Shown: positions 3,197 to 44,184, counted from the stretch's first letter. The stretch is DNA of 64,000 nucleotides from Candidatus Saganbacteria bacterium (GCA_026387795.1 JAPLLA010000019.1:2972-66971), one strand, 5' to 3'. A program made the numbers and translations. Notes: a model not told the origin generated them from the letters alone.

Positions 3197-5278
3197 ATGC
3201 AAAACCCTTTTGGCGTAACTTTTTATCCTGAACTCTGGTCAAAAAACGAAGTCAAAGAAGCTTTTGTTTTAATCAAAAAAAGCGGCTTTAATATTATCCG
3301 TTTTGGCGAAATCAGCTGGGGAGAAGTAGAACCAAAAGACGGCAAATTTGATTTCCGCGCTTTTGATGAAGCATTTAAAATTGCCCAAAAACTCGGGCTT
3401 AAAATTTTACTTGGCCTCGGTGTTTCACAAGCTCCGCAATGGTTAATCGCCAAGCATCCAGAGTTCAAGCAGGTCTCTTCTTGCGGTTTTACGCATCCCG
3501 AATACGGCCCGCGGCCAAATGTATGCAGGGATAACCCCAGGTTTTTAAAATATGCCAAGCGCTATGTCGAAAAAGTACTTAAACGTTACGCCAAACATCC
3601 TGCACTTGCAATGTGGCAGATTGACAATGAGCCAAACTATCCGCCGCTAGACCTTACAAACAACTGCTTGGATTTTTGCCACTGTCCTGCCACGCGTAAA
3701 GCTTTTATTGATTGGCTTAGGGAGAGATACAAAACCATAGACAAGCTGAACCAAGCTATGGGAACAAGTTTCTGGGGAAATCGCCTGGGGAATTTTGCCG
3801 ACATTGCTACTCCCAAAGGCGGATTTTGGGATGCCGGTAACCCGCATTTTTATCTGGAATGGATGCGCTTCAAAAGCGAACAACTTAGCAAGTGGCTCTG
3901 CTGGTTAAAAGGGCTGGTCCGAAAATACGATAAAGAACATCCAGTGGGAACCAATAATTTTGTGGGAATCTGCTGCCGTACCCCCGACCATCTTAAGCTT
4001 GCCCGTGGAATGGATTATTACGGCTGGGATGTTTACCCAAAGGGGACCAGAAATTCTCCTGAGAGCTTGGCGGAACACGCAGACCATTGGAGAGGAATAT
4101 GCGAAGCAAATAATGCCGCATTTATTCTTTCCGAACTCCAAGGCGGACGCAATGTGCGCTGGGGTTATCCGGGTTGGGTAAAAGGGGAAGAAATCTACAC
4201 TTGGTCGCATCAAGTAGCAGCGCATGGTGCCAAAGGCATTTTATATCATGCTTTAAGACCCCCCCTGTTTGGCAGTGAAACCGGCGGCTTTGGGATTTTG
4301 GGTGCGGACGGAGGAGAAACAGACCGGCTGCAGGAAATTGTAAAAGCAGGTAAAGAATTAAAACAGGTTTGGCCGATTATTAAAGATGCAAAGCTAAAAG
4401 CAGAAATTGCGATTGTATATTTAAAAAGTGCGGAGATCCAAACTTATCAAGAAGAAGGTCCGGTGCGCTCTGTGCCTGCGGGTTGGGTTGGAGGGCGTGG
4501 GGACATTGGGCTTATGTATGGGCTGGATAGCATTGCAGGCGCATACAGGGTACTTTGGGACTGGGACCTGCCCGGAGAATTTCTTTTTGAAGATAACCTG
4601 GCCAAAGAACTCCCTTCTTATAAAGCGATCCTTCTTCCCAATCCATATCTTTTGGACACAAAAACCGCCCAGGCTTTAATGCAATTTGTAAAGAATGGCG
4701 GCAGCCTGATTACAGAAGCGCGGTTTGGAATGAAGGACGAGCTTGGACATCTGCGTCCGCAGCCATTCCTTCAAAACTTTTTTTCCGTTAGGTACATTGG
4801 CACAGAAGTGATTGAAGGAGAAAAAACACTCAAAAAATTAGGCGGCAAAATTACGGGTTTTAGGGATTTAATAGAAACCAAAGAAGAGGTAGCGGGCTAT
4901 TTTGAAGATGGCAAGCCGGCTTTAATTTTAAAAAAAGTAGGCAAGGGTACCATTGTTTATGCGACATTTAGTTTATTTGCAAATCTGCTTAAATATGAAA
5001 ACTTAAATATCGTCAGATGGCTGCGCAAGCATTTGCCGGAGCCTTTTTACAAATTAAAAGCGAGCGAAGAAGTGGAAATAGTGCCGTGGGAAGACAAAGA
5101 CCTTTTCTTTTATGCAATTAACCATGCGGACAAAGAAGAAAAAGTAAAAATTACCCTCCAAAATAAGGTCAAAAAAGCGGAAGATTTATTAGGGAAATCC
5201 GATTGCGTAGTTTTGCAAGGTACGATACAATTTTCTCTCATGCCGAGAGGCGTAAAACTTATTAAAGTGCACCAGTAA
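3197..5278 (+). CDS. glycoside hydrolase family 42 beta-galactosidase-like protein
   Basis: 693 aa; N-terminal GVTFYPELW...FNIIRFGEISWGEVEP, characteristic of GH42 TIM-barrel enzymes. Confidence 0.75.
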   Translation: MQNPFGVTFYPELWSKNEVKEAFVLIKKSGFNIIRFGEISWGEVEPKDGKFDFRAFDEAFKIAQKLGLKILLGLGVSQAPQWLIAKHPEFKQVSSCGFTHPEYGPRPNVCRDNPRFLKYAKRYVEKVLKRYAKHPALAMWQIDNEPNYPPLDLTNNCLDFCHCPATRKAFIDWLRERYKTIDKLNQAMGTSFWGNRLGNFADIATPKGGFWDAGNPHFYLEWMRFKSEQLSKWLCWLKGLVRKYDKEHPVGTNNFVGICCRTPDHLKLARGMDYYGWDVYPKGTRNSPESLAEHADHWRGICEANNAAFILSELQGGRNVRWGYPGWVKGEEIYTWSHQVAAHGAKGILYHALRPPLFGSETGGFGILGADGGETDRLQEIVKAGKELKQVWPIIKDAKLKAEIAIVYLKSAEIQTYQEEGPVRSVPAGWVGGRGDIGLMYGLDSIAGAYRVLWDWDLPGEFLFEDNLAKELPSYKAILLPNPYLLDTKTAQALMQFVKNGGSLITEARFGMKDELGHLRPQPFLQNFFSVRYIGTEVIEGEKTLKKLGGKITGFRDLIETKEEVAGYFEDGKPALILKKVGKGTIVYATFSLFANLLKYENLNIVRWLRKHLPEPFYKLKASEEVEIVPWEDKDLFFYAINHADKEEKVKITLQNKVKKAEDLLGKSDCVVLQGTIQFSLMPRGVKLIKVHQ

Positions 5279-5289
5279 GGAGAAAGCAA

Positions 5290-7644
5290 ATGAAGTACGG
5301 ATTTTTTGACAAGAAAAATAGGGAATATGTAATTACCAGACCGGATACGCCGCTCCCCTGGATCAATTATTTGGGCAGTGAAGAATACTGCGCGCTTTTT
5401 TCAAACACCGCAGGCGGATACAGTTTTTGCGTAGACCCTCTTTACCGCAGACTGCTTCGCTACCGTTACAACAATGTCCCTATGGACCGCGGCGGCAGAT
5501 ACATATATATAAGGGACAACAAGACCAAGGAATATTGGTCCCCAACCTGGCAGCCGGTTTTAAAAGACCTCAAGCATTTTAAATACGAGTGCCGTCATGG
5601 TACAGGGTATTCCGTGATTTCTTCAGAATATGACGGAGTACAAACCAAAGGGACCTATTTTGTCCCGCTAGGGGAGAACTGCGAAGTGTGGATGCTGCAA
5701 GTTAAAAATGTTTCTAAAGCAGCCAAGAAAAAAAACTTAACGGTTTTTTCTTTTGTGGAATTCTGCTTGTGGGACGCATTAAACGACATGACAGATTTTC
5801 AATATAACTTGAACATCGGCCAAACCGAATATACAGATGGGGTTATTTGGCACCTGACCCGCTACAGAGTAGAAAAATACCAATTTGCCTATTTAGCCTG
5901 CACCAACCAGGATGTAACCAGTTTTGATTCAGACCGGGACAGCTTTCTTGGGCCTTACGGTTCTTTTGAAAATCCCAAAGCAGTAAAAGACGGCAAATGC
6001 TCAAACTCTATTGCGTGCGGTTGGTCTCCGGTTGGTTCGCACTGTGTCCCTATTACACTGAACGATAAAAACGAAGAAACCGTTATTTTTGTACTTGGCT
6101 ATAACACAGACAAAAAAGACGTAAAAAGGATCTTAAAGAAATTCGATTCCAAAACAAAGGTGGAAAAAGAGATCCAAAAGCTCAAAGAGTATTGGGAAGA
6201 GAGCCTCAACAAGTTCACAGTTGAAACCGAAGACGAAGAAATGAACACAATGTTAAACACCTGGAACCAGTACCAATGCCGTACCACTTTTAACTGGTCC
6301 CGTTCCGCTTCTTACTACGAAGCGGGCATCGGCCGCGGCATGGGTTTTAGGGATTCAAACCAAGATACCTTGGGCTTTGTGCATCAGATCCCGCAAAAGG
6401 TAAAAGAGAGAATTATTGATATCGCTTCTACTCAATTTGAGAACGGAAGCGCAAACCACCAGTATCAGCCGCTTACCAAAAAAGGTGCTGGCGGAGGATT
6501 TTCCGACGACCATCTTTGGCTAATTATTTCTGTGGCAGGATACATTAAAGAAACTGGAGACTTTGCTTTCCTGTCTCAAAAAGTCCCGTTTGAAAACGGC
6601 AAAAAAGCGCCGATGTACGAACATTTGGAAAAAGCGATTGAATATACCATGACTAACCTGGGTCCGCACGGATTGCCCAAAATGTTTAAAGCAGATTGGA
6701 ACGATTGCTTAAACCTTCCTGGGGCCAAAGGCCAGTCAGAATCCGTGATGGTTGCCCAGCAGTTGGTTTACGTAGCCCGCGAAATGGAAAAACTGGCAGT
6801 ATACGCAGGTAAGTCGGAAGATGCGGAAAAATATGCCAAGTATGCTCAGCAAATGACCAAGAGCATCAATTCCGTAGCTTGGGATGGTTCTTGGTATTTA
6901 CGCGCTTTTACAGACGATAAGGAAGCAGTGGGATCTTCCAAATGCAAAGAAGGAAAGATTTACCTGGAAACACAGCCTTGGGCGGTTATGAGCGGAAGCG
7001 CGCCGGAAGATCGGGCAAAAAAGTGCATGGATTCTGTTTACAAGCATTTGTTCAGCAAGCACGGGATCATGATCCTGCAGCCTTCTTACGAAGAGTATCC
7101 TCCTGAGCTTGGTACGATCGGTTTTTACCCTCCGGGGCTTAAAGAAAACGGAGCGATCTTTTGTCATCCAAACCCATGGGCCATGGTTGCAGAATGCATG
7201 TTGGGCAGGGGAGACCGCGCGTTTGAATATTACAAAGCGATCCTTCCGGCAGCGCGCAACGACATAGCAGAGATCCATCGTACAGAGCCATATGTCTACT
7301 GCCAAATGATTGCGGGCCGTGACCACGCTAAGTTTGGAGAAGGCAAAAACTCTTGGTTGACTGGTTCTGCTTGCTGGAACTTTGTAGCAGCATCACAATG
7401 GATCCTTGGCATCCGCCCAGATTACGAAGGACTGATGGTTGATCCTTGCATTCCAAAAGGATGGGACGGTTTTGAAGTAAAGAGAGTATTTAGAGGCGCA
7501 ACCTATTACATTACTGTAAGAAACCCCAAACATGTTTCAAAAGGGATCAAAGAAGTTACAGTAGATGGTAAAAAGGTTGAATCCAATGTTGTCCCTGTCT
7601 TTTCAGATGGCGGCGAGCATTTTGTGGAAGTCCTCATGGGGTAG
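5290..7644 (+). CDS. glycoside hydrolase family 94 glycosyl phosphorylase (cellobiose/chitobiose phosphorylase-like)
   Basis: 784 aa; N-terminal ...ITRPDTPLPWINYLG... and overall length typical of GH94 disaccharide phosphorylases. Confidence 0.8.
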   Translation: MKYGFFDKKNREYVITRPDTPLPWINYLGSEEYCALFSNTAGGYSFCVDPLYRRLLRYRYNNVPMDRGGRYIYIRDNKTKEYWSPTWQPVLKDLKHFKYECRHGTGYSVISSEYDGVQTKGTYFVPLGENCEVWMLQVKNVSKAAKKKNLTVFSFVEFCLWDALNDMTDFQYNLNIGQTEYTDGVIWHLTRYRVEKYQFAYLACTNQDVTSFDSDRDSFLGPYGSFENPKAVKDGKCSNSIACGWSPVGSHCVPITLNDKNEETVIFVLGYNTDKKDVKRILKKFDSKTKVEKEIQKLKEYWEESLNKFTVETEDEEMNTMLNTWNQYQCRTTFNWSRSASYYEAGIGRGMGFRDSNQDTLGFVHQIPQKVKERIIDIASTQFENGSANHQYQPLTKKGAGGGFSDDHLWLIISVAGYIKETGDFAFLSQKVPFENGKKAPMYEHLEKAIEYTMTNLGPHGLPKMFKADWNDCLNLPGAKGQSESVMVAQQLVYVAREMEKLAVYAGKSEDAEKYAKYAQQMTKSINSVAWDGSWYLRAFTDDKEAVGSSKCKEGKIYLETQPWAVMSGSAPEDRAKKCMDSVYKHLFSKHGIMILQPSYEEYPPELGTIGFYPPGLKENGAIFCHPNPWAMVAECMLGRGDRAFEYYKAILPAARNDIAEIHRTEPYVYCQMIAGRDHAKFGEGKNSWLTGSACWNFVAASQWILGIRPDYEGLMVDPCIPKGWDGFEVKRVFRGATYYITVRNPKHVSKGIKEVTVDGKKVESNVVPVFSDGGEHFVEVLMG

Positions 7645-7664
7645 AGATTTGTCCTAGGCCAACG

Positions 7665-7718
7665 CCGGGAATCCCGGTGTATTGACAAGATACCGGGAAT
7701 CCCGGTATAATTGCAAAT
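7665..7718 (+). promoter_or_regulatory. consensus sigma70-type promoter TTGACA-18-TATAAT with two copies of a CCGGGAATCCCGG near-palindrome; predicted leaderless start at the ATG of the 7719 gene
   Basis: TTGACA at 7682-7687 and TATAAT at 7706-7711; near-palindromes at 7665-7677 and 7693-7705, the second inside the spacer; ATG at 7719 with no SD. Confidence 0.6.
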
Positions 7719-8681
7719 ATGAAGATCCACTTGCCAAATAGCGCTTTTTTGGGTAATATTGACCCTTTTATTCGCGGGTTTGATCCTTTATCAGACAATG
7801 TTCTGGAAATTTCCGCCAATGATAAATGGATTTCAGTTCATCCAGTGGTTTTATCGATGATTGCCGCACTTGGCTTGACAATTGATGCCAAGAATATTTC
7901 TTGTGCTAAGTTTGAAGCAAAATCAAAACACTATCTTGCGCGCATGGGACTTTTTCAAATATTGGGAATTAGATCAGACTTTGATTTTGTGGAGCACGAA
8001 CCTGCCGGCCGCTTTATTCCTGTCACCCAGATAAAAACGTCAGGCGAGCTGACAAAATTCATCACCGAAATGATCCCTCTTTTACATCTTGAGCCGGAGC
8101 AGGCGAAAACGATCGGTTACATTGTAAGCGAATTAGCGCGAAATGTTATTGAGCATGCTGCTTCCGAAAAAGGGGCAGTATTGTGCGCCCAATATTATAA
8201 AAAAAGCAATTCAATCCGCGTTGGGATTGCTGATACTGGTGTTGGCATAAAAAAAACGATCAATCAATCCTATGCTGCGGCAACTGATCTGGAGGCTGTT
8301 AAACTTGCCCTGCAGCCGGGAATTACAGGAACAACAAGAAGAGAAGGGGGTACAGAGCAAAATGCCGGGGCAGGACTGTTTTTTATAAAATCCATTGCCA
8401 GCGTGAACCGGGACTTTTTTGTCATTTACAGCGGATCAGGATTTTATAAGCTGCTGAAAAAAACATCGCGAGTAAGACCGCAGCTAAATGCAAACCCGGA
8501 AAAAGACCGGCACTCGGAAAGCGATGAAATGCCTTTTTGGCATGGGACTATTGTGGGGATAGACATTTCCCTTAACCAGACCGAAGAATTTTCCCTGTTG
8601 CTGGATGCCATAAGAAAAACCTATAGTACTGCTCTGAAAGAAAGAAGAAAATCACGCTATAGGAAGCCAAGGTTTATATGA
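7719..8681 (+). CDS. GHKL-type ATP-binding protein (HATPase_c-like, RsbW/anti-sigma-kinase-like) with unknown N-terminal domain
   Basis: 320 aa; N-box-like SELARNVIEHA, G1-like GIADTGVGI and G2-like GAGLFFIKS motifs. Confidence 0.6.
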   Translation: MKIHLPNSAFLGNIDPFIRGFDPLSDNVLEISANDKWISVHPVVLSMIAALGLTIDAKNISCAKFEAKSKHYLARMGLFQILGIRSDFDFVEHEPAGRFIPVTQIKTSGELTKFITEMIPLLHLEPEQAKTIGYIVSELARNVIEHAASEKGAVLCAQYYKKSNSIRVGIADTGVGIKKTINQSYAAATDLEAVKLALQPGITGTTRREGGTEQNAGAGLFFIKSIASVNRDFFVIYSGSGFYKLLKKTSRVRPQLNANPEKDRHSESDEMPFWHGTIVGIDISLNQTEEFSLLLDAIRKTYSTALKERRKSRYRKPRFI

Positions 8682-8962
8682 AGCAGATAAATATTTTTGA
8701 TAAAGCTGGATCGTTTGCGGAAAATAAAGACATTGCTAAAGCGGTCCGGATAGAAGAGATCCTTCCTGCGTTAAACAAGCAGGAGGAAATTATCCTGGAT
8801 TTCAAAAACGTTGAGGCTGCTACGCAGTCTTTTATCCACGCGCTTCTCAGCGATGTTATAAGGAAATACGGCGGCGAGGTTTTGGACAAAATATCTTTTA
8901 GATCGTGTAATGATACCGTAAAAAAGATAATAGGCATTGTGGTTGACTACATGCAGGAGTAA
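8678..8962 (+). CDS. small STAS-like (DUF4325-like) protein, putative partner of the upstream ATPase
   Basis: 94 aa; start overlaps the stop of the upstream gene (ATGA); size and pattern of STAS-like antagonist proteins. Confidence 0.5.
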   Translation: MKQINIFDKAGSFAENKDIAKAVRIEEILPALNKQEEIILDFKNVEAATQSFIHALLSDVIRKYGGEVLDKISFRSCNDTVKKIIGIVVDYMQE

Positions 8963-8968
8963 AGCACT

Positions 8969-8999
8969 GGTGTGCCATTTTGGCACACCTCTATTTTCC
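8969..8999 (+). terminator. intrinsic terminator-like hairpin after the STAS-like gene
   Basis: GGTGTGCCA-TTTT-TGGCACACC stem-loop followed by a T-rich tract. Confidence 0.45.
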
Positions 9000-9041
9000 G
9001 ACGGCGGCGAGCATTTTGTGGAAGTGGCGATGGGGTAAGAC
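9000..9041. repeat. displaced ~42-bp copy of the 3' end of the GH94 gene; direct repeat partner of 7606-7647
   Basis: GACGGCGGCGAGCATTTTGTGGAAGTGGCGATGGGGTAAGA versus GATGGCGGCGAGCATTTTGTGGAAGTCCTCATGGGGTAGAGA at 7606-7647; both encode ...SDGGEHFVEV.MG*. Confidence 0.65.
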
Positions 9042-9169: not shown

Positions 9170-9427
9170 TTAGGAGGCTCCTCCACTACCATCCGAGCAC
9201 TCTCCTGTGGCACCTGTTCCTGGAGCACAAAGCTCTGTTGAGATAACATCTCCGCCATCGCCACAGCCGAATGCTGCCGAAGGGCCCGTATTACACGAGT
9301 TGTTTGCTATTCCCCCATTGGCAACACATCCGCCAGCAGCATTTGAACCCGCAGGGCAAGCATCTCCGTATGTCTTTCGGGAAGCTAAACTTAGTAGGCC
9401 TGGGGCTTGATATTTTATCTTTTCCAT
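9170..9427 (-). CDS. Cys/Gly/Ala-rich small protein (85 aa) ending ...GSGGAS
   Basis: ATG at 9427 preceded by GGAGGA SD; sequence MEKIKYQAPGLLSLASRKTYGD followed by a low-complexity C/G/S/T/A-rich region with 7 Cys; immediately downstream of the JAMM gene on the same strand. Confidence 0.45.
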   Translation of the reverse strand: MEKIKYQAPGLLSLASRKTYGDACPAGSNAAGGCVANGGIANNSCNTGPSAAFGCGDGGDVISTELCAPGTGATGECSDGSGGAS

Positions 9428-9474
9428 TTTATTCCTCCGCAGGTTGATTTTAGTAAAGCATACACTATGGAATA

Positions 9475-9484
9475 GGGGGGGGGG
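9475..9484. repeat. G10 (C10 on the coding strand) homopolymer tract in the JAMM/small-protein intergenic gap
   Basis: direct read: aataGGGGGGGGGGcaagg. Confidence 0.85.
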
Positions 9485-9499
9485 CAAGGAGAAAAACCG

Positions 9500-10075
9500 C
9501 TAAGCCTTAGTGCTAAAAGTGGATGAATCCCAATTTACAGGAATATCTTTTTTGTAAGTCAGCTTGCGGTTTAAGTAGTCAGAGAGCATCTGCTTAAGCT
9601 CTGCCATTTCTTTTTCCGGCAGGTTATCGCTCATCTTTGGCTTTCCAGTGGCAATATCAACTACCGTAAACCCTTTATCGCTTATTACTCTAATCGCTTC
9701 GGGAACAGCGGTCTTTTTTACTACCTGGTAAGCCGCGAATTCTGGATTGTACTGGTCGCGTAATCCCACAATAAATAAATAGCGAAAATTGTGGGCCAAA
9801 TCCTGCTCCGATGGATAAGCTATACCTTTAGGATGAGTATGGTAAACTCCTAAAAATTCCATCCCGTGCTTTTGTAAAAAGAGGTGGCCGCGCTCAAAAT
9901 CTTCGCCAACCAAGCCGTATTTTTTATTTGGGTCAAGGAATTCTTTGTTGGCAATGGGAAGTACGGCCATAATAGAGTTCCCTTGCCCGCCCAAGATTCC
10001 GCCAGTCTCCTGCGGATACGCTTCCATGGCTTGTTGTAAAATTATTCTATATTGATGCTCTGTAATCTGTAACAT
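9500..10075 (-). CDS. JAMM/MPN+ family metalloprotease (Mov34-like)
   Basis: 191 aa; ...GVYHTHPKGIAYPSEQD matches the JAMM motif H-x-H-x(7)-S-x(2)-D; upstream Glu also present. Confidence 0.7.
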   Translation of the reverse strand: MLQITEHQYRIILQQAMEAYPQETGGILGGQGNSIMAVLPIANKEFLDPNKKYGLVGEDFERGHLFLQKHGMEFLGVYHTHPKGIAYPSEQDLAHNFRYLFIVGLRDQYNPEFAAYQVVKKTAVPEAIRVISDKGFTVVDIATGKPKMSDNLPEKEMAELKQMLSDYLNRKLTYKKDIPVNWDSSTFSTKA

Positions 10076-10699: not shown

Positions 10700-10760
10700 A
10701 CAAAAACACCATATATAGCAGCTTGACAGCCCCAGATATAGTAGCCTATACTGACCCCGC
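10700..10760 (+). promoter_or_regulatory. putative nrdR promoter (TTGACA-17-TATACT) with two NrdR-box-like ATATAG-containing motifs
   Basis: ACACCATATATAGCAG near 10706-10721, TTGACA at 10724-10729, CCCAGATATAGTAGCC near 10731-10746, TATACT at 10747-10752; SD GAGGT precedes the TTG start at 10779. Confidence 0.35.
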
Positions 10761-26739: not shown

Positions 26740-27802
26740 TTGCATCTCCCATTTCGGATGTCCCTACAGCAGTAGGATCGTTTCTGTCCAGCTTCATGTC
26801 GTAAGTAACGTCTTTTCCTTCTCTAATTATATCTGCCACTGCTTTTTCCAGTTTTTTTGCAGCGTCAATTTCTCCCAGATATTCCAACATCAAAACGCCT
26901 GAAAGGATCATAGCAGTAGGATTAACCTTGTTTTGCCCCTTATACTTTGGCGCACTTCCGTGTACTGGTTCAAACAAAGCAATGTCTTTACCAATGTTTG
27001 CTCCTGGTGCAATCCCCAGACCCCCGATTAGCCCTGCACAAAGATCAGAGATAATATCGCCATAAAGATTTGGGAGTACTAATACATCATATAGTTCGGG
27101 TTTTTGTACTAACTGCATGCACATGTTGTCTATCAATCTCTCTTCATATTCTATTTTGCCCGCATATTCTTTTGCTACTTTTCTGGCTTCGTCAAAAAAT
27201 AAGCCGTCTGTAAACTTCATGATGTTTGCTTTGGTTACAGCAGTTACTTTTTTGCGGCCGTATTTTATTGCATAATCAAAAGCGTAGCGCACAATTCTTT
27301 GCGTACAGGCGCGGGAGATGGGCTTAATGCTTATTCCGGAGTGTTCGTTAATGTGGCGGTGGCTAAGTTTTTCAATGGTTTCAATGAGTGTTTCTGTTTC
27401 CGGCTTGTCCACTTCAAACTCGATCCCTGCATACAGATCTTCGGTATTTTCCCTGACAATTACCAAATCAATGTTTTCGTACTTTGAACGCACGCCAACA
27501 TAATATTTTGCAGGGCGCAGACAAACATAAAGGTCCAGCTCTTTTCTTAGAGCAACATTTACGCTCCTAAAACCTTTACCAATCGGAGTAGTAATGGGGC
27601 CTTTGATGGCAACTTTGTTCTTGCGAATAGACTCAATAACGTTTTGAGGGAGGGGTGTGCCTGCTTTTTCCATGATATCCACACCTGCATGCTGGATATC
27701 CCAATTAAACTTTACTCCGGTAGCTTCGAGTACTTTTCTGGTTGTTTCTGCGATTTCTGGCCCGGTCCCATCACCCGGGATAAGGGTTACGTTATAGGTC
27801 AT
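26717..27802 (-). CDS. leuB: 3-isopropylmalate dehydrogenase (isocitrate/isopropylmalate dehydrogenase family)
   Basis: 361 aa; N-terminal [10 protein letters not shown]; adjacent to leuD. Confidence 0.7.
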
Positions 27803-28302
27803 AGCTTGAATCCCCCGTGTTTTTTGAAATGTTCTACCAGCCCGCCATCGGACAATAATGTTTGCATGGTTGGGGGGAGGGGGCTGAATTTTAATTCTTT
27901 ACCTTTGGTCTTATTGGTTACCATCCCCTTATCTAAATCTACTTCTAGATCGTCCCCATCATCAATTCCGTCTGTATCAAGCTCCAAAGCCGGCAACCCC
28001 AAATTAAAAGAGTTGCGATAGAAAATTCTGGCAAAAGATTTGGCCAGCACTGCCGAAATATTTGCGTACTTTATAGCTTGAGGAGCTTGTTCGCGGGATG
28101 AACCGCAGCCAAAGTTTGAGCCCGCTACAATAAAGTCTCCGGGCTGGATCCTTTGATAAAAATTGGGATCCAGGTCTTCCATTACATGCTTTGCCAGCTC
28201 TACCGGGTCTTGGATTTTAAACTTGTAGCGCCCGGAGATAATATAATCCGTATTAATATCGTTATTTTGGCTGAAGCGCCTTGCTTTTCCTTTTAAAATC
28301 AT
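27799..28302 (-). CDS. leuD: 3-isopropylmalate dehydratase small subunit
   Basis: 167 aa; [25 protein letters not shown] typical of short-form LeuD. Confidence 0.85.
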
Positions 28303-37959: not shown

Positions 37960-38281
37960 TCCAGAAAAAGAAGCACAAAGGATAGTGGCGGAGTACTTAT
38001 CTGGGCTAGGGTGGGCCAGGCAGTGGCAGCAAGTGATAGAAAGAGAACCGCGGTCTTTTGGAAGGGACGAAAGAGAAGACAAGCTGCGCAAAGCAGAAAA
38101 GATGATGGAAGAAACCGAAGACCGCTTTAGCCAGCATGTGGAAAAATACCTCCACGATTCTTCGCCGGAAGCCAAACAAGTGTTGGAAAACATTCTAAAA
38201 AAACTTTCGCCTCGCCGCGACTTGGGGTTTTTCTGCCAGAGGATTTTGAGCCACATTAAAAACAAGCTGGGGATTTATTAG
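37937..38281 (+). CDS. hypothetical charged small protein
   Basis: 114-aa ORF; overlaps the 3' end of the 37199 gene; no motifs. Confidence 0.3.
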   Translation: MALPADSNPEKEAQRIVAEYLSGLGWARQWQQVIEREPRSFGRDEREDKLRKAEKMMEETEDRFSQHVEKYLHDSSPEAKQVLENILKKLSPRRDLGFFCQRILSHIKNKLGIY

Positions 38282-41200
38282 GCTTGGCTTTGTACTTCCC
38301 TTTGTAATTCAGACAGATTAAACGATAAATGCGGACGCCAGATAAAATTAAATCTTTCTACTGCTACGAAATAGCTTATCTCTTTATCTCCAATCTTGCC
38401 GGTAAACCTGCGATAGGTATCGGACATAGACTTAAAATTATAGATATGGGTATTGCGGTCAAATAATTCCGGATGGTCTGCTGCAGTCCAGCCAGAAGCA
38501 ACGCTTTCTACGGCGGAGCCAAGATACCTGGCATTGGGGTTTGCATCATCGTATTGGCGATTGGGATCTGCCAGATGAGTCATTGTGCCGCTGTCAAAAG
38601 GATCAAACATTACCCATTCGTGTGCACCGGATAGCATGCCTGGAAAGTGAGCGGATTTTTCAGCAAAACCCATGTAAACAGCGCTTCTGATCCCTGCTTC
38701 CTGGTAAGCCATTTGCAGTACCGGTGAACGATGCCTGCAACATCCGCCTTTTTTCATGAAAAAAGCCTGAGTTAAAAATTGCCCAGTTTGGCCTTTTTCC
38801 CTGGATTGCTTATCTGAATATGAAATGTGGAGCTGCTCGAAAATGTTTTTGGCTAAGCCGACTACGTGGTCAGGGGCATTTAATAATCCCGCGGCAAGGC
38901 GGGAGATTGCTTCTTTTTTTGCGGCTATCACAAATTCAAAAACAACAGAAGGATCTCCTGCGCTGTCTTTTTCCCCTTTGTTTATCCCTGCAACTTCACC
39001 GTGTTCCAGGGGTTTTCCCAATTCTGCATTGAGTAGCGCAGGAGAACAGTCATGTTGGCGCAGGAATGGGTTGTCAGCCACTTCCCCATATTTGTCCGGA
39101 GTGATTTCTGCTGCAAGCGTTATTTTGTGCCCATTTGGAAACAAAGCTGCCTCGATTTTTGTTCTGGTTAACATGGTTCTGCGCACTGCCTGGTCAAATT
39201 GTTTTTCTGCTTGAGGGGTAAGCCCGCCGACTTTTGCTTTCCAACCAAGGAGTCCTCCGGTTTTAGTTTTTGGCAGAGAAGCATATAAATCAGCCAATAC
39301 CTGATTTTCCGCGCGGATGCATGCAAGCGGGTCCCTAAGGTAAAGTTCTACATAAGTGTAAAAATCACTTGCAGTGGCAACGCGCATTACTCCGCCGGAA
39401 GCTTTGGGCATGGCCAGGCCACTGACCTCATCCGGTGTAAACTTTCCAAAAAGCTCCCCCAGTAAAACTGCTTTTACACTTTTTACCGGACGGGGCGCAA
39501 GAGCTGCTGCTTGTGCAACTACTCCCAGCAGGCCGTGTAACTTGCCCAGATATTCTTTTTTGTAGTTAGCTACTCTGGCAATACCCTTCCCACTGGTTAC
39601 ATATGTTTTTATCATTTCTCTCATTTTTAGCAAGGTATCTGGTTCTTTTGTAAGCAGGCCAATGAACTCCGTAAGATTTTCTGCAGTTAAAGAGACCGCA
39701 GCCAAAGTTGGGTGAGAGAAAGAAACTTTCCCGCCGGGTCTGTTGACTTTATGCGGGAAGAGAGAGCTAAACGCAGTGTTAAATGCTTCGGGATCACTAT
39801 GCCACTGCAGGTATCCAAGAATAATCCGTCTTAAAACTTCATTTTCAGGTGTATTTAATGCTGCCACAATTTGGGTTTGGGCAGCAGCAACTTTTGCTTC
39901 TATGGCAGCCCCGATTTTGGCGATGGCTGCTGTGCGGTGTTCAATTTTTTCTCGAATTTGTGCATTTGCCGGATCTGCCTGGGCTGCTGTTTCCCAAAGT
40001 GCACAATACTGCCGTAAGGCGGATAAAGCGGTAAAAAGATTTTCCAGGGAGTGCATTCTTGCCAGTTCTGCGCCGCTGGTTGAGATTGCTATGCCTTGAT
40101 TAAAAATAGCCCTAACTACATCCTTTTTGTCTCCTTGCTGTGCTTGCAAATCCGCTTCTGCTTCTTGGGCTGTTTTAAGAGCGCTTTTTTGCGGCGGCGT
40201 AGGAGGTTCCGGGACAGAAACTCTGGTGTGTTTATAAGCAAAAACAGAGACATTGTCCCCATGTGCACCACCGTTTGCTCTCATTGTTTCTACAGAGGCC
40301 TGGTAAATGTTTGCAGCTAAGTCAACTAAAGAAGATGTGGGGTCCAGCAGCTCAACAAAAGAAGCAAACTTTTCTTCTCCGGGCTTTTTTGAGGCAGCGT
40401 TAAAAGGAAGGTTGTCCCGCGGACCGTCAGTCATTCCCAAGACAATATCCCCTTCTTCCAATTCGCAGGTAAAAACATGCGGAGTACTGTTGGTTTGGCC
40501 CAAGGCTCTCAAAATTATGTGATTATTAGGAAACCCCCTAAAAATTTCATGATATTCTCTTAGCTCTTCTCCGCCTATGGGTTGGGTAGGGTAATCTCCT
40601 TTATCCATTTTATATCCTTCAACGGCTAAGTTGTCGTCGAACGACACTTGATGCAAGGTCCCGTTTTGTTTAAGGACATAAACAGGGGCGTCACCTATGT
40701 TAACTACAGTTAAAGTATTTCCGCGGACCTCGTAAGCAGCAACAGTACTTCCCATTCCTTTTAAGGTTTGTTTTTCCGGCCTTCCGTCTAAAGCTGCAGC
40801 AGCAAGATCTTTTTCTACTTCTTCCAATATTTTTGCTTGAGCCAGTGCAATACATTCTTGCAAAGTTTTACCTTCGCCAAGAGCTTTGGAAAAAACCTCT
40901 GCTGCTATGCGGCTGGCAACTTCTCCCCCTGCGTGTCCTCCCATGCCGTCAAAACAAACAAAAACCTTCCTTTGGGCATCTTCATAATACAAAATAGCAT
41001 CTTCGTTTTTTGCCCTTGCTCCAATGCTGGTGAGGCCGTGTATGTTTTTCCCTGGGAAAGTGATGACCCCTTCTGCTCCGCCCGCGTAAAATTTTACAGT
41101 TTGTACTGGTGCTGCTTCTTTCTGTGCAATGACTCGGTCCAAGTTTTCCAGTGCTTTGGTTTTGGCGCCCGCTATGTCTACCATAGACTGTAAAAGTGCG

Positions 41201-44184
41201 GCGTCTTCCGGAGAGGTAAAAATCCGTCTTCCTTTTTCTAATGCTTTGGTCCAAATTCCAAGTTCTTTGTCAACTAGAGAGCGGGTGATCCTTAATTGGT
41301 CCAATGTTTCCTTGTTTAAAGCCTCTAAATTTCCGCTTCCAGCAGCAGCAATGCTTACAGCTGCAGCTGTATTCATCCCTACGGTTCCACCTGGTCCTGT
41401 AACCAGGTAAATGGGATCTATTTGTTCCAGAGCTTCTTTATGTAAGCGGCGGGCCAGGGCTTTTTTGGTTAGGCTTAAAGCAGTTCTGGCATGTGCTACT
41501 TCTGCTTCAAAAGGTTTTTCATGTGGGAACCTAGCATTCGCTCTTTCCCAAATAGGAACACTTCTGGCAAAACCATCCAAGACCCCTTCCAAGGCAGCCA
41601 CATCCCAGCCAGTAGCCAAAGCAGCAACCCGGTCTGTTTCCGATGCATGCTGTCTAATGATATTTCTTATATGTCCGTCAATTTGGCGATGATGGGTAGT
41701 GGACCAGGCACGTTCTTGATCTCCTTCTGCGCTTGTTCTGGCAGCGGCAACATCATCTTTTCTTAATTTAATCGCTTGATTAAGGGCCTCCAAACCTTCC
41801 CGTTTTCTTTTTGCCAGTTCCCCAAAAGGGTGGTCTGGGGAAAAAGCAGCATCCGCACCCTGCCATAGCCGCAATGCTTCTCCCATGCGATGGCTGGTTT
41901 CTTCTAGGATTGCTAAACTGGTATCATTGGTTGTTCTGGGGCCGTTTTCCATGCGGTCTCTGATCCGGGTCCAAGCAACACCTGCGTCGGTATTTGGAAA
42001 AAGATCTGCTTCGGCTTTTTCGGTTTTTCTTTTTGCATTAGCAAATACAGCTTCCTTTTCTTCTATAGCAGTCCCTAATATTATTCGAGCGGTTTTAAGG
42101 TTTTCGGTTTTTTTGGAAGCTTCACTGCTTTCCGGGAATTCACTGCTAAGCGGTTCCCAAACCACCAAGATATCCCCTAAAATTTTCTGAGTAGCCTGAA
42201 GCAGTGCTAAAGAAGTGTGGTCCAAGAATTCAGGCTGTTCCAGTGCCACTCCATAGGTGTCTTCTACTTCCTCGGGAGCATAACCAGTTGCCATTTTCAA
42301 TATATCATTTTCTGCTTTCCTGGCCAGGCTCATTTGCCTTTCCATGTGTACAACTGCAACTCGTTGTTCCAGGATCCTTAGTTCAGCCAACTGTGCGTTG
42401 ATGGGGATAGTTAAGTCCGGCTTTTCAATAGACAATCTTTCCCAAAACGCAATTCTGCTCCTTAGCCAAGAGAGGGTTTGAGCTACTGTTCTGTAACCTT
42501 GTTCTTCCTCGATCCCGGCTGCCCTAAAAGAAGGCGGGAGGGGAGCAGTATTAGCAGGATCCCTTTTCCATTCCAAATAAGTCTTTATATCTGCATGCCT
42601 GGCCAGAAATTCCGTTTCTTGTGCCTTGTGGAATGCAACCGGGTCATTGGTCCTCCCGATTTTTAAGTCAATTATTTTTTGAAGTTCTACAAGGGCCCTG
42701 GCATAACCCTCAATTTTATCTTGTGCAAAGGCTGGGTCGTTTAAACTGGTTCTGGCAGTTTCCCATGCAGCTTTTAGTGTTTGGGCTTTTTCATAAACTG
42801 CTTGGAGTTCGGGAAGAGAATAGGCTGCTAATTCATCGGGATTTTCCCTTGCGCTGGTCATTACAGTGCTAAAATGCACTGGCGGTTCTGCCCCCAATAA
42901 TTCCCCGATAGTTCTACTTTCTTCCGCTACTAATTTGGCAAAGGTCAAAACTTTTTTATCACTCTTAGCTGTTGCCAAGGCGTGTTGTAAAACAGTCATG
43001 CGAAGGGAACTTTTAGGATGATTAACTTCTGCGGCAAAGCTTTGCCAGCTTGCAATGTGCTCTCCCAGAAAAGTTAAAACTGATTCTATAGCAGCCAAGC
43101 TATCTTCGACTGCTGCCAGGTCCCTAAAACTTTCCGGTAAATCACGTGTTGCTCCGGGTTGCGTTCTTGCGGCCAAATATTCCTGGGCTTTGCCAGAAAG
43201 AGCTGCAATTACTTGGGCTTCTTCTCTAAGCTTTGCTTCATGTAAGCTTTGTTTTAGTTCCCCAATTACGCGTCCAAGGGTTTCCAAGTCCGCGGTGTAT
43301 TGAGCGTGAAGCTCTGTCCCGTCTTCCAAAAGAGGGAGTAGTTCTTCGCGGACCAATCGTTCTGCTTCAACCAAGGTTTTTAGGTCTGCCAAAGTGGTAC
43401 CTGCATACTGCCTGGAAACAACCATAATTGCAGCAGGGGAGATGCCCAGCAGGTCTTGTGTAGCAGTCCCCAAAGTTTCTCTTAAAGCATCAATCCTTGC
43501 TCCTTCTTCTTGCACTTCCCTTCCCAGACGCGCGGAAGATTCTCTTAACTGCCGTGCTTGTTCTTCTAACCCCGGAAGATTTGCTTCTCTTTCTGCTTCT
43601 ACCAGTGCTCTACGCATGTCTTCTACTGGTCCCATAAGTACAGCTTTGAAAGCTGCCAAGGAATCCCTGCATCCTTTCAAAGCAGCAGTTAGGTCTCCTG
43701 CTTGTTCTTCTCCTTCTCTTTTTGCTCCTTCTAACTCATCCTTACCTGCTTCTTCAAGACCAGGAGTTGTAAGCGCGCCTAAAACAACAGCAAGCGCATT
43801 ATTTATACCGCTTAAGGCAGCATTTAACTCAGTAATTTGAGCACTTAAATCTTTTGCTTCTGCATTGGCGTCAAATTCTTGCAATACCCCTGATTCTGCA
43901 TTGGCAATGGCGCTTCTCTGAGCTGCCAGTTCCCCGCTTTTTTCTTCTATTGTTCTTGCTGTTTCTTTCAAAGAAGCGGTGGCTTGATCTGCCAAGGGGC
44001 GTTTTTGTTCCAATGAACCTGTGAGGGTATCGATTTCTTCCCGCGCAGAGATTACCTTAAGCCAAGCAGCTTGAAAAGCAGAGACCTCTGCTGGTAATGT
44101 GGGTCTTATTGTAGGTTTTTGATGAGAACGAAACAGAACGAGATCGCCTGTTCTTATTAGTCCTCTTACACCGGGACTCTGCAT
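38278..44184 (-). CDS. giant multidomain protein (1968 aa): shared N-terminal paralog module, PP2C-type phosphatase domain, C-terminal transglutaminase-like Cys-His-Asp domain
   Basis: the first ~600 aa are collinear with the 585-aa and 723-aa neighbours; FVCFDGMGGHAGGE, NIGDAPVYV and LGMTDGPRDN are PP2C motifs (DNA ~40190-40950); C-terminal GGCCRHRS...GAHEWVMFDPFD fits a transglutaminase-like Cys/His/Asp core (DNA ~38480-38760). Confidence 0.7.
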   Translation of the reverse strand: MQSPGVRGLIRTGDLVLFRSHQKPTIRPTLPAEVSAFQAAWLKVISAREEIDTLTGSLEQKRPLADQATASLKETARTIEEKSGELAAQRSAIANAESGVLQEFDANAEAKDLSAQITELNAALSGINNALAVVLGALTTPGLEEAGKDELEGAKREGEEQAGDLTAALKGCRDSLAAFKAVLMGPVEDMRRALVEAEREANLPGLEEQARQLRESSARLGREVQEEGARIDALRETLGTATQDLLGISPAAIMVVSRQYAGTTLADLKTLVEAERLVREELLPLLEDGTELHAQYTADLETLGRVIGELKQSLHEAKLREEAQVIAALSGKAQEYLAARTQPGATRDLPESFRDLAAVEDSLAAIESVLTFLGEHIASWQSFAAEVNHPKSSLRMTVLQHALATAKSDKKVLTFAKLVAEESRTIGELLGAEPPVHFSTVMTSARENPDELAAYSLPELQAVYEKAQTLKAAWETARTSLNDPAFAQDKIEGYARALVELQKIIDLKIGRTNDPVAFHKAQETEFLARHADIKTYLEWKRDPANTAPLPPSFRAAGIEEEQGYRTVAQTLSWLRSRIAFWERLSIEKPDLTIPINAQLAELRILEQRVAVVHMERQMSLARKAENDILKMATGYAPEEVEDTYGVALEQPEFLDHTSLALLQATQKILGDILVVWEPLSSEFPESSEASKKTENLKTARIILGTAIEEKEAVFANAKRKTEKAEADLFPNTDAGVAWTRIRDRMENGPRTTNDTSLAILEETSHRMGEALRLWQGADAAFSPDHPFGELAKRKREGLEALNQAIKLRKDDVAAARTSAEGDQERAWSTTHHRQIDGHIRNIIRQHASETDRVAALATGWDVAALEGVLDGFARSVPIWERANARFPHEKPFEAEVAHARTALSLTKKALARRLHKEALEQIDPIYLVTGPGGTVGMNTAAAVSIAAAGSGNLEALNKETLDQLRITRSLVDKELGIWTKALEKGRRIFTSPEDAALLQSMVDIAGAKTKALENLDRVIAQKEAAPVQTVKFYAGGAEGVITFPGKNIHGLTSIGARAKNEDAILYYEDAQRKVFVCFDGMGGHAGGEVASRIAAEVFSKALGEGKTLQECIALAQAKILEEVEKDLAAAALDGRPEKQTLKGMGSTVAAYEVRGNTLTVVNIGDAPVYVLKQNGTLHQVSFDDNLAVEGYKMDKGDYPTQPIGGEELREYHEIFRGFPNNHIILRALGQTNSTPHVFTCELEEGDIVLGMTDGPRDNLPFNAASKKPGEEKFASFVELLDPTSSLVDLAANIYQASVETMRANGGAHGDNVSVFAYKHTRVSVPEPPTPPQKSALKTAQEAEADLQAQQGDKKDVVRAIFNQGIAISTSGAELARMHSLENLFTALSALRQYCALWETAAQADPANAQIREKIEHRTAAIAKIGAAIEAKVAAAQTQIVAALNTPENEVLRRIILGYLQWHSDPEAFNTAFSSLFPHKVNRPGGKVSFSHPTLAAVSLTAENLTEFIGLLTKEPDTLLKMREMIKTYVTSGKGIARVANYKKEYLGKLHGLLGVVAQAAALAPRPVKSVKAVLLGELFGKFTPDEVSGLAMPKASGGVMRVATASDFYTYVELYLRDPLACIRAENQVLADLYASLPKTKTGGLLGWKAKVGGLTPQAEKQFDQAVRRTMLTRTKIEAALFPNGHKITLAAEITPDKYGEVADNPFLRQHDCSPALLNAELGKPLEHGEVAGINKGEKDSAGDPSVVFEFVIAAKKEAISRLAAGLLNAPDHVVGLAKNIFEQLHISYSDKQSREKGQTGQFLTQAFFMKKGGCCRHRSPVLQMAYQEAGIRSAVYMGFAEKSAHFPGMLSGAHEWVMFDPFDSGTMTHLADPNRQYDDANPNARYLGSAVESVASGWTAADHPELFDRNTHIYNFKSMSDTYRRFTGKIGDKEISYFVAVERFNFIWRPHLSFNLSELQREVQSQA

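Follow-up and report, generated by a model that had tools for sequence, protein, structure and literature searches.

In a 64,000-nucleotide stretch of DNA from a Candidatus Saganbacteria bacterium (GCA_026387795.1 JAPLLA010000019.1:2972-66971), hereafter referred to as the window, a short region directly upstream of a kinase gene (gene K) combines a consensus promoter, two palindromic dyads interleaved with it and a start codon placed just behind the -10 hexamer. Gene K and the small gene overlapping its end (gene S) constitute, together with this promoter and a terminator-like hairpin, a cassette of 1.34 kb. The region is probably the promoter-operator of this horizontally mobile K-S cassette, which would be expressed from a leaderless transcript and negatively autoregulated by a dimer that the cassette itself encodes. 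A leaderless promoter with two dyad operators, conserved across genomes as described here, is almost certainly functional. An earlier note, made from the window sequence alone, had proposed a strong leaderless promoter gated by a dimeric repressor; it missed the context, which is that of a mobile kinase/STAS cassette common to bacteria and archaea.

The -35 hexamer TTGACA and the -10 hexamer TATAAT (coordinates of the features are given in Table 1) are separated by a spacer of 18 nucleotides (nt), and the ATG of gene K follows the -10 hexamer after a gap of 7 nt, TGCAAAT. No purine run resembling a Shine-Dalgarno (SD) sequence is present in the last 20 nt before this ATG. Two copies of the 13-mer CCGGGAATCCCGG occupy positions 7665-7677, upstream of the -35 hexamer, and 7693-7705, within the spacer. 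Direct reading thus confirms the promoter, the two repeats, the 7-nt gap and the missing SD as the earlier note had reported them. The two copies are the only exact occurrences of the 13-mer in the window and each is a perfect 6-1-6 dyad; with their flanks they form a 24-nt direct repeat at a spacing of 28 nt, and both lie within a larger imperfect palindrome of 41 nt, the centre of which is the A of TTGACA. The 13-mer was not found in a literature search.

The arrangement TTGACA-18-TATAAT is the sole 12/12 match to the sigma-70 consensus in the window, where about 0.05 such matches are expected by arithmetic from the base composition. Matches of 11/12 number three, and promoters scoring 9/12 or better number 31, against 27.5 +/- 5.3 in shuffled sequences. 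Near-consensus hexamers, a spacer within 16-18 nt and retention of the hexamers at orthologous positions are all observed, as in a promoter of the sigma-70 type. The start codon, which lacks an SD, stands at the distance from the -10 hexamer where transcription would be predicted to start, as in a leaderless gene. The earlier claim that such a start is unusual for the window stands, but the accompanying statement that the other genes carry SDs is correct only in part. The layout is not unique in the window, because a strong SD precedes only 20 of the 41 long open reading frames (ORFs) and a 7-nt gap between TATAAT and ATG recurs at one further gene (27799-28302, minus strand); this gene has no SD and may also be leaderless. 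An 11/12 promoter, TTGACA-18-TATACT, was noted at 10723-10752, 26 nt upstream of the nrdR start (TTG, 10779).

A search for homologues of K gave 2966 matches, the top 120 of which are 72-100% identical, and a scan of species-representative genomes identified 310 relatives of K; the counts of layouts and start codons given here refer to the best 80 of these 310, in which K is 65-79% identical. The bacterial hosts among the best 80 belong to Saganbacteria, Elusimicrobia, Omnitrophota, Planctomycetes, Chlamydiae, Spirochaetia, Deltaproteobacteria and lineages of the Candidate Phyla Radiation (CPR), and the archaeal hosts to Nano-, Woese-, Micr- and Aenigmarchaeota, Thermoplasmata and Methanosarcinales. 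The closest relative found (L168) has a K that is 88% identical and is located behind the same GH94 gene, the C-terminus of which is 90% identical. Between the window and L168, both 13-mers, TTGACAA and TATAAT are invariant in an otherwise diverged 74-nt intergenic region, in which the 7 nt preceding the ATG keep their length and not their sequence.

A bacterial layout is found in 53 of the 80 loci, with a dyad at about -47, a TTGAC-type -35 hexamer at about -36 and a second dyad at about -19 whose terminal TA begins the -10 hexamer; the gap from the -10 hexamer to the start codon is 5-11 nt in these loci, with a mode of 6. An archaeal layout is found in 17 loci, which have a full dyad centred at -50, a TATA box TTTATAAA at about -30 and, directly before the start codon, a half-site (A)TTCCCGGTA; this is the geometry of an archaeal leaderless promoter. 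Variant layouts, with a degenerate proximal site or a short leader, account for the other 10. Start codons are ATG in 66, GTG in 13 and TTG in one of the 80 loci, and non-ATG starts were observed 5-8 nt after the -10 hexamer in L009, L022-L025, L032, L037, L038, L045, L046, L048, L056, L060 and L078. The consensus of the 17-bp dyad, derived from 104 sites, is TACCGGGAWTCCCGGTA, with A at the centre in 53 and T in 51; the weight matrix of these sites reads T A C C G G G A W T C C C G G T A. Within the 530 kb covered by these loci the operator is nearly confined to the cassette, 91 of its 93 matches falling within 130 nt upstream of K. The invariance of the elements in L168, the fixed positions of the dyads and the narrow range of the gap support, on comparative grounds, the repressor-gated leaderless promoter that the earlier note had envisaged. 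Selection acts on each of the elements to which that note had pointed.

The assignment of loci to archaea is genuine and not a binning artefact, because L059 carries aIF2-gamma and XerA and L065 a Hel308-type helicase. In the tree of K, the archaeal-promoter loci group together in a single clade, in which the archaeal phyla are mixed and one bacterial-promoter locus is nested; the bacterial phyla are intermixed too. This topology points to few transfers across the domains and many within each. In L084 (3730-4000), an insertion of about 190 nt, rich in inverted repeats and resembling a miniature inverted-repeat transposable element, separates the archaeal promoter-operator from the start of K.

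Whether a dyad is maintained as sequence or as a base-paired structure can be read from its substitutions. Among 46 pairs of sites, 101 departures from the dyad consensus were counted, of which six are compensated within the site and ten in the partner site; the centre bases of paired sites are complementary in 22 cases and identical in 24, as in random pairing. The constraint on the dyads is one on sequence and not on a hairpin, because the substitutions are not compensatory, and this fits a dimeric protein that reads the sequence, as the earlier note had supposed. Dyads that overlap the core promoter elements and are conserved in sequence and not in base pairing are those to be expected of a dimeric repressor's operator.

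The remote subfamilies are instructive as to the binder. In L170 (50% identity), repeats of the TTACGTAA type surround TTTACA-17-TAAAAT-6-ATG; in the phage-borne L085 (43%), ATACCCGTAGATCGTAT and its inverse surround TTGACA and run into TATAAT-6-ATG; in L171 (46%), a CCTGGATTCCAGG version of the site is retained; further remote subfamilies have SD leaders instead. As these relatives keep the layout with different repeats, it is suggested that the operator binder is encoded by the cassette itself. The K and S residues of subfamilies with the same and with different operators were also compared, on too few sequences, and gave a weak hint at P6, P16 and G20 of K. A subfamily with 47% identity (L173/L174, 793-1173) has an SD leader and an additional upstream ORF of 126 amino acids (aa) without a family match, a candidate for a separate regulator there. 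The 43% relative was found in three phage contigs of IMG/VR (L085-L087); in L085 (5940-7250) the K-S cassette lies between phage tail and structural genes in the manner of a moron, with the same promoter layout and different 17-mers.

Gene K begins right at its N-terminus with the STAS-like domain and ends in a long basic C-terminal helix. Its 4-nt overlap with gene S (ATGA) suggests translational coupling. No helix-turn-helix (HTH), winged HTH (wHTH) or ribbon-helix-helix domain is detectable in K or S, so that the operator is left without a recognisable DNA-binding protein in the cassette. The hairpin after gene S has 9 pairs, 6 of them GC, and a predicted energy of -18.3 kcal/mol (z -2.9). 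All-against-all clustering of the neighbouring ORFs revealed no third conserved gene by the cassette in 81 loci, and the neighbours differ in every locus. PADLOC identified no defence system, its sole match covering only an N-terminal portion of a DrmA model and probably reflecting a fusion, and NCBIfam gave nothing above the cut-off.

Two kinase-STAS systems are of particular relevance. CapK (HTH-STAS-GHKL) phosphorylates CapS (STAS-wHTH), which, as a dimer, represses both its own promoter and an immune promoter downstream; the CapS sites are palindromes overlapping the -10 hexamer, among them a "narrow" type in which 1 bp separates the half-sites, CapS is released once a conserved serine is phosphorylated, and single-stranded DNA (ssDNA) activates CapK (Chambers et al., EMBO J 2026, PMC13373217). 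In VapKSC, a toxin-antitoxin (TA) and anti-phage system, VapK (STAS-GHKL) phosphorylates the STAS antitoxin VapS, upon which the nuclease VapC is released (PMC13373217); an earlier survey had described a VapC/PIN clade coupled to DUF4325 genes (PMC5499597). The profile of the K family aligned across both domains with the first 286 residues of VapK, taken from the supplementary model file of PMC13373217 (hhalign; 98.4% probability, E 6.8e-15, 219 columns). The best PDB sequence match of the S-family profile is Escherichia VapS (E 0.0024), and the VapS phospho-serine region aligns with T49-Q50-S51 of S, all three residues being invariant. By profile homology, K-S is therefore a member of the VapK/VapS-CapK/CapS superfamily, in a third architecture.

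The cassette resembles VapKSC in its VapK-homologous K, in a DUF4325 protein S with a conserved Ser/Thr and in the gene order K then S. However, it lacks a VapC/PIN gene (in the window S is followed by the terminator and a direct repeat, and no third gene recurs in the 81 loci), S has no counterpart of the VapC-inhibiting C-terminal extension, members of the family are found in archaea and not in bacteria alone, and a leaderless promoter with dyad operators has not been described for VapKSC. With CapK/CapS it shares the pairing of a GHKL kinase with a STAS partner, a palindrome at its own promoter overlapping the -10 hexamer and half-sites 1 bp apart, but the C-terminal wHTH of CapS and the N-terminal HTH of CapK are absent from S and K, the half-site is TACCGGGA and not TTAA, and the cassette stands alone whereas CapKS lies upstream of the immune operon that it controls. 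By analogy, K-S would work like CapS autoregulation, though it falls outside both CapKS and VapKSC as these are defined. It differs from SpoIIAB/SpoIIAA and RsbW/RsbV in having no sigma factor partner, in its presence also in archaea, which lack sigma factors, and in the additional STAS-like N-domain and the long basic helix of K. Only relatives less than 30% identical were found in the plasmid and phage databases, and the two plasmid matches inspected are not VapKSC-like.

Autoregulated type II TA operons consist of short overlapping genes with palindromic operators across their own promoter. The K-S cassette resembles them in its two short overlapping genes, its own promoter, the palindromic operators across the -35 and -10 hexamers and its promiscuous transfer among bacteria and archaea, and in L036 it is arrayed with AbiEi/AbiEii pairs; unlike them, it has no recognisable DNA-binding antitoxin domain. 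Leaderless mRNAs are known from lambda cI, Tn1721 tetR and many actinobacterial and archaeal genes. The cassette shares with these a start codon at the predicted transcription start and the lack of an SD, a geometry kept in bacterial and archaeal cassettes alike; the difference is that the leaderless design here would belong to a mobile two-domain unit and not to a general habit of the host.

The flanks of the cassette bear on its mobility. A 54-nt stretch of the left flank (direct repeat DR1), covering the 3' end of the GH94 gene, is 83% identical to positions 8988-9040 on the right (DR2). All GH94 relatives end in EHxVEVxMG followed by the stop codon, and both repeats still encode FSDGGEHFVEVxMG and the stop; DR2 is therefore, on this comparison, a true relic of the GH94 3' end. 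The differences between the repeats are mostly synonymous or are several changes in one codon, which suggests that both evolved as coding sequence. As the 3' end of GH94 is duplicated on the two flanks, the unit from promoter to terminator is an old insertion without a recombinase of its own. Since the L168 cassette lies behind the same GH94 gene, the insertion is older than the split of the two lineages and has since been passed on vertically. The closest GH94 genes in a metagenome scan are only 68% identical, so that no empty site was available for comparison.

In at least nine loci (the window, L059, L017, L068, L055, L036, L016, L008 and L071), target DNA is directly repeated on the two sides of the cassette. 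The repeats measure 166 nt in L068 and 108 nt in L055 and are shorter in L016, L008 and L071. In the archaeal L059 (about 3850-5340), the repeat, 46 nt long and perfect, takes in the 5' end of the downstream gene and comes immediately behind a XerA-like recombinase gene, and in L017 (about 3320-4840) a 54-nt repeat corresponds to the 3' half of a tRNA gene beside the cassette. Three copies of a 37-nt repeat in L036 (1476-1512, 4683-4719 and 6247-6283) delimit an AbiEii pair plus the K-S cassette and then an AbiEi/AbiEii pair, the array being located between two AAA_14/DUF4143 genes; it looks like a serial insertion of small TA-like cassettes at one site. A tyrosine-recombinase motif within 4 kb of the cassette was absent in 61 of 64 loci and present in three, and no conserved sequence was found after the S stop codon in the loci compared. 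Thus, the cassette has the flanking target repeats of integrase islands and integron cassettes and neither a recombinase gene nor an attC site. L070 has an isolated operator copy (about 6600-6760), 1.4 kb downstream of its cassette, and the same 35 nt stand behind this copy as behind the cassette stop; a scar left by deletion or excision, or else another cassette that has degenerated, may account for it.

In the proposed mechanism, RNA polymerase with a sigma-70-type factor would use TTGACA-18-TATAAT and initiate on the A of the ATG or no more than about 2 nt from it, so that the K-S mRNA would be leaderless. Translation of S would be coupled to that of K by the ATGA overlap, and the transcript would end at the hairpin (8969-8989). 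The two 17-bp dyads, with half-sites 1 bp apart, bracket the -35 hexamer and fill the spacer up to the -10 hexamer; a sequence-specific dimer bound there would exclude the polymerase and bring about negative autoregulation. The binder would be K or S or a complex of the two. If CapK/CapS is taken as the model, activation of the kinase and phosphorylation of S near T49-Q50-S51 might free the operator. A leaderless start and an autonomous operator would make expression independent of the SD usage and the regulators of the host, which would fit a unit that is present in many bacterial phyla and, with the same operator beside a TATA box, in archaea.

Other explanations of the dyads must be weighed against this mechanism. 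The lack of a detectable DNA-binding domain in K and S, and the presence of CCGGG/CCCGG in the half-sites, with CCWGG variants, would accord with an operator read by a host factor, or with a methylation target of the CCNGG type, in place of a site for a cassette protein. This is nonetheless unlikely: the 17-mer is kept in hosts of more than ten bacterial and archaeal phyla and is nearly confined to the cassette, and the remote subfamilies change the identity of the site while keeping the layout, along with which a host factor is not expected to travel. Quite improbable, too, is a primary role of the dyads as recombination or mobility sites at the left end of the cassette, read by a trans-acting recombinase, with the overlap with the promoter being secondary. 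The cassette is clearly an insertion bracketed by target repeats, it carries no recombinase and seldom lies near one, and the solo dyad of L070 is joined to the flank that follows the cassette stop, all of which such a role would accommodate. However, the dyads are locked to the -35 and -10 hexamers in bacteria and to the TATA box and start codon in archaea, and not to the insertion boundary, which varies from 71 to 487 nt upstream of the ATG; the right end has no similar site and nothing is conserved there. Moreover, a 1-bp dyad centre is atypical of the core sites of tyrosine and serine recombinases.

A role of the palindromes as a hairpin or cruciform, which would terminate or insulate read-through from GH94 or modulate the topology of the promoter, is suggested by the 41-nt imperfect palindrome and by the folding of the 71-nt region as ssDNA at -17.5 kcal/mol (z -5.65). 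It is very unlikely and was rejected on the lack of covariation, substitutions being compensated neither within nor between sites and the centre bases pairing at random. In addition, no T-run follows either dyad hairpin in the window, Rfam has no match in the promoter-operator region (its only hit, a sub-threshold SAM_alpha inside gene S with E 0.11, was judged to be due to chance), and transcription is predicted to start downstream of both dyads, which would hence be absent from the cassette mRNA. A chance match to the consensus without function would agree with the frequency of weaker promoters in the window, which is about that of the shuffled sequences, but the match is the sole one of 12/12 in 64 kb, the 13-mer is exactly duplicated and the unit is conserved in dozens of distant genomes; its probability is negligible, the conservation data having already refuted it.

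If the autoregulated promoter-operator is as proposed, the cassette would be a compact natural portable expression unit, in which two genes bring along a promoter, an operator, a leaderless start and a terminator. It would work in Elusimicrobia, CPR bacteria, and DPANN or methanogenic archaea with only the elements recognised by the polymerase being exchanged, and would extend the kinase-STAS family of CapK/CapS and VapKSC, which in 2026 was described for bacteria, to archaea and to a stand-alone architecture without a known effector. It would also provide a defined operator/promoter pair for experiments on cross-domain transfer and leaderless translation. Three points deserve attention: the operator is conserved across domains although the promoter is swapped, a DNA-binding domain is missing, and the way in which the cassette inserts is unexplained. 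The second of these raises the question as to which HTH-less protein reads the 17-bp dyad. A bolder view can be offered only tentatively: the minimal VapK/VapS-like pair may form an autonomous cassette, either selfish or defensive, which moves between bacteria and archaea, its leaderless promoter controlled by itself via a double-stranded DNA operator that STAS/GHKL proteins read without a canonical DNA-binding domain, in a new mode of recognition. On passing between the domains, the sigma-70 hexamers would be refitted to a TATA box with the operator kept, and insertion would proceed without a recombinase, leaving target duplications of 30-170 nt.

Table 1. Features of the K-S cassette and its flanks in the window
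Feature	Position	Strand	Remarks
Left direct repeat DR1	7595..7648	+	Last 16 codons and stop (7642-7644) of the GH94 gene; translates to PVFSDGGEHFVEVLMG and stop
Distal operator O1 CGCCGGGAATCCCGGTG	7663..7679	.	13-bp perfect core 7665-7677, invariant in L168; centre -48 from the ATG; just upstream of -35; homologous site centred at -47 +/- 2 in bacterial loci
-35 hexamer TTGACA	7682..7687	+	12/12 promoter scan; TTGAC-type hexamer here in 53/80 loci; invariant in L168
Proximal operator O2 TACCGGGAATCCCGGTA	7691..7707	.	Perfect match to the family consensus; centre -20; fills the spacer; final TA starts the -10 hexamer
-10 hexamer TATAAT	7706..7711	+	TATAAT in 30/53 bacterial-type loci, TAnnnT variants in the others
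Gene K, 320-aa serine kinase	7719..8681	+	STAS-like N-domain and SpoIIAB/RsbW-type GHKL core; VapK homologue; HATPase_c_2 match
Gene S, 94-aa STAS-only protein	8678..8962	+	DUF4325 (PF14213, E 8e-13), VapS-like; overlaps K by 4 nt (ATGA)
Intrinsic-terminator-like hairpin GGTGTGCCA-TTT-TGGCACACC, then TCTATTTTCC	8969..8999 (hairpin 8969-8989)	+	Top-ranked terminator candidate
Right direct repeat DR2	8988..9040	+	Relic second copy of the GH94 3' end; translates to PLFSDGGEHFVEVAMG and stop

Some other features of the window were noted in passing. A small Gly/Cys-rich ORF (9170-9487, minus strand), called as 85 aa in the public contig and without a family match, adjoins a Prok-JAB gene and may encode the precursor of a peptide. 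Ten consecutive G (9475-9484), positioned between the start region of this small ORF and the end of the JAB/MPN gene (9500-10075, minus strand), could be a slippage tract or a weak point of the assembly. Two giant ORFs are present on the minus strand at 38278-44184 and 48466-54027, with lengths of 1968 and 1853 aa, respectively.
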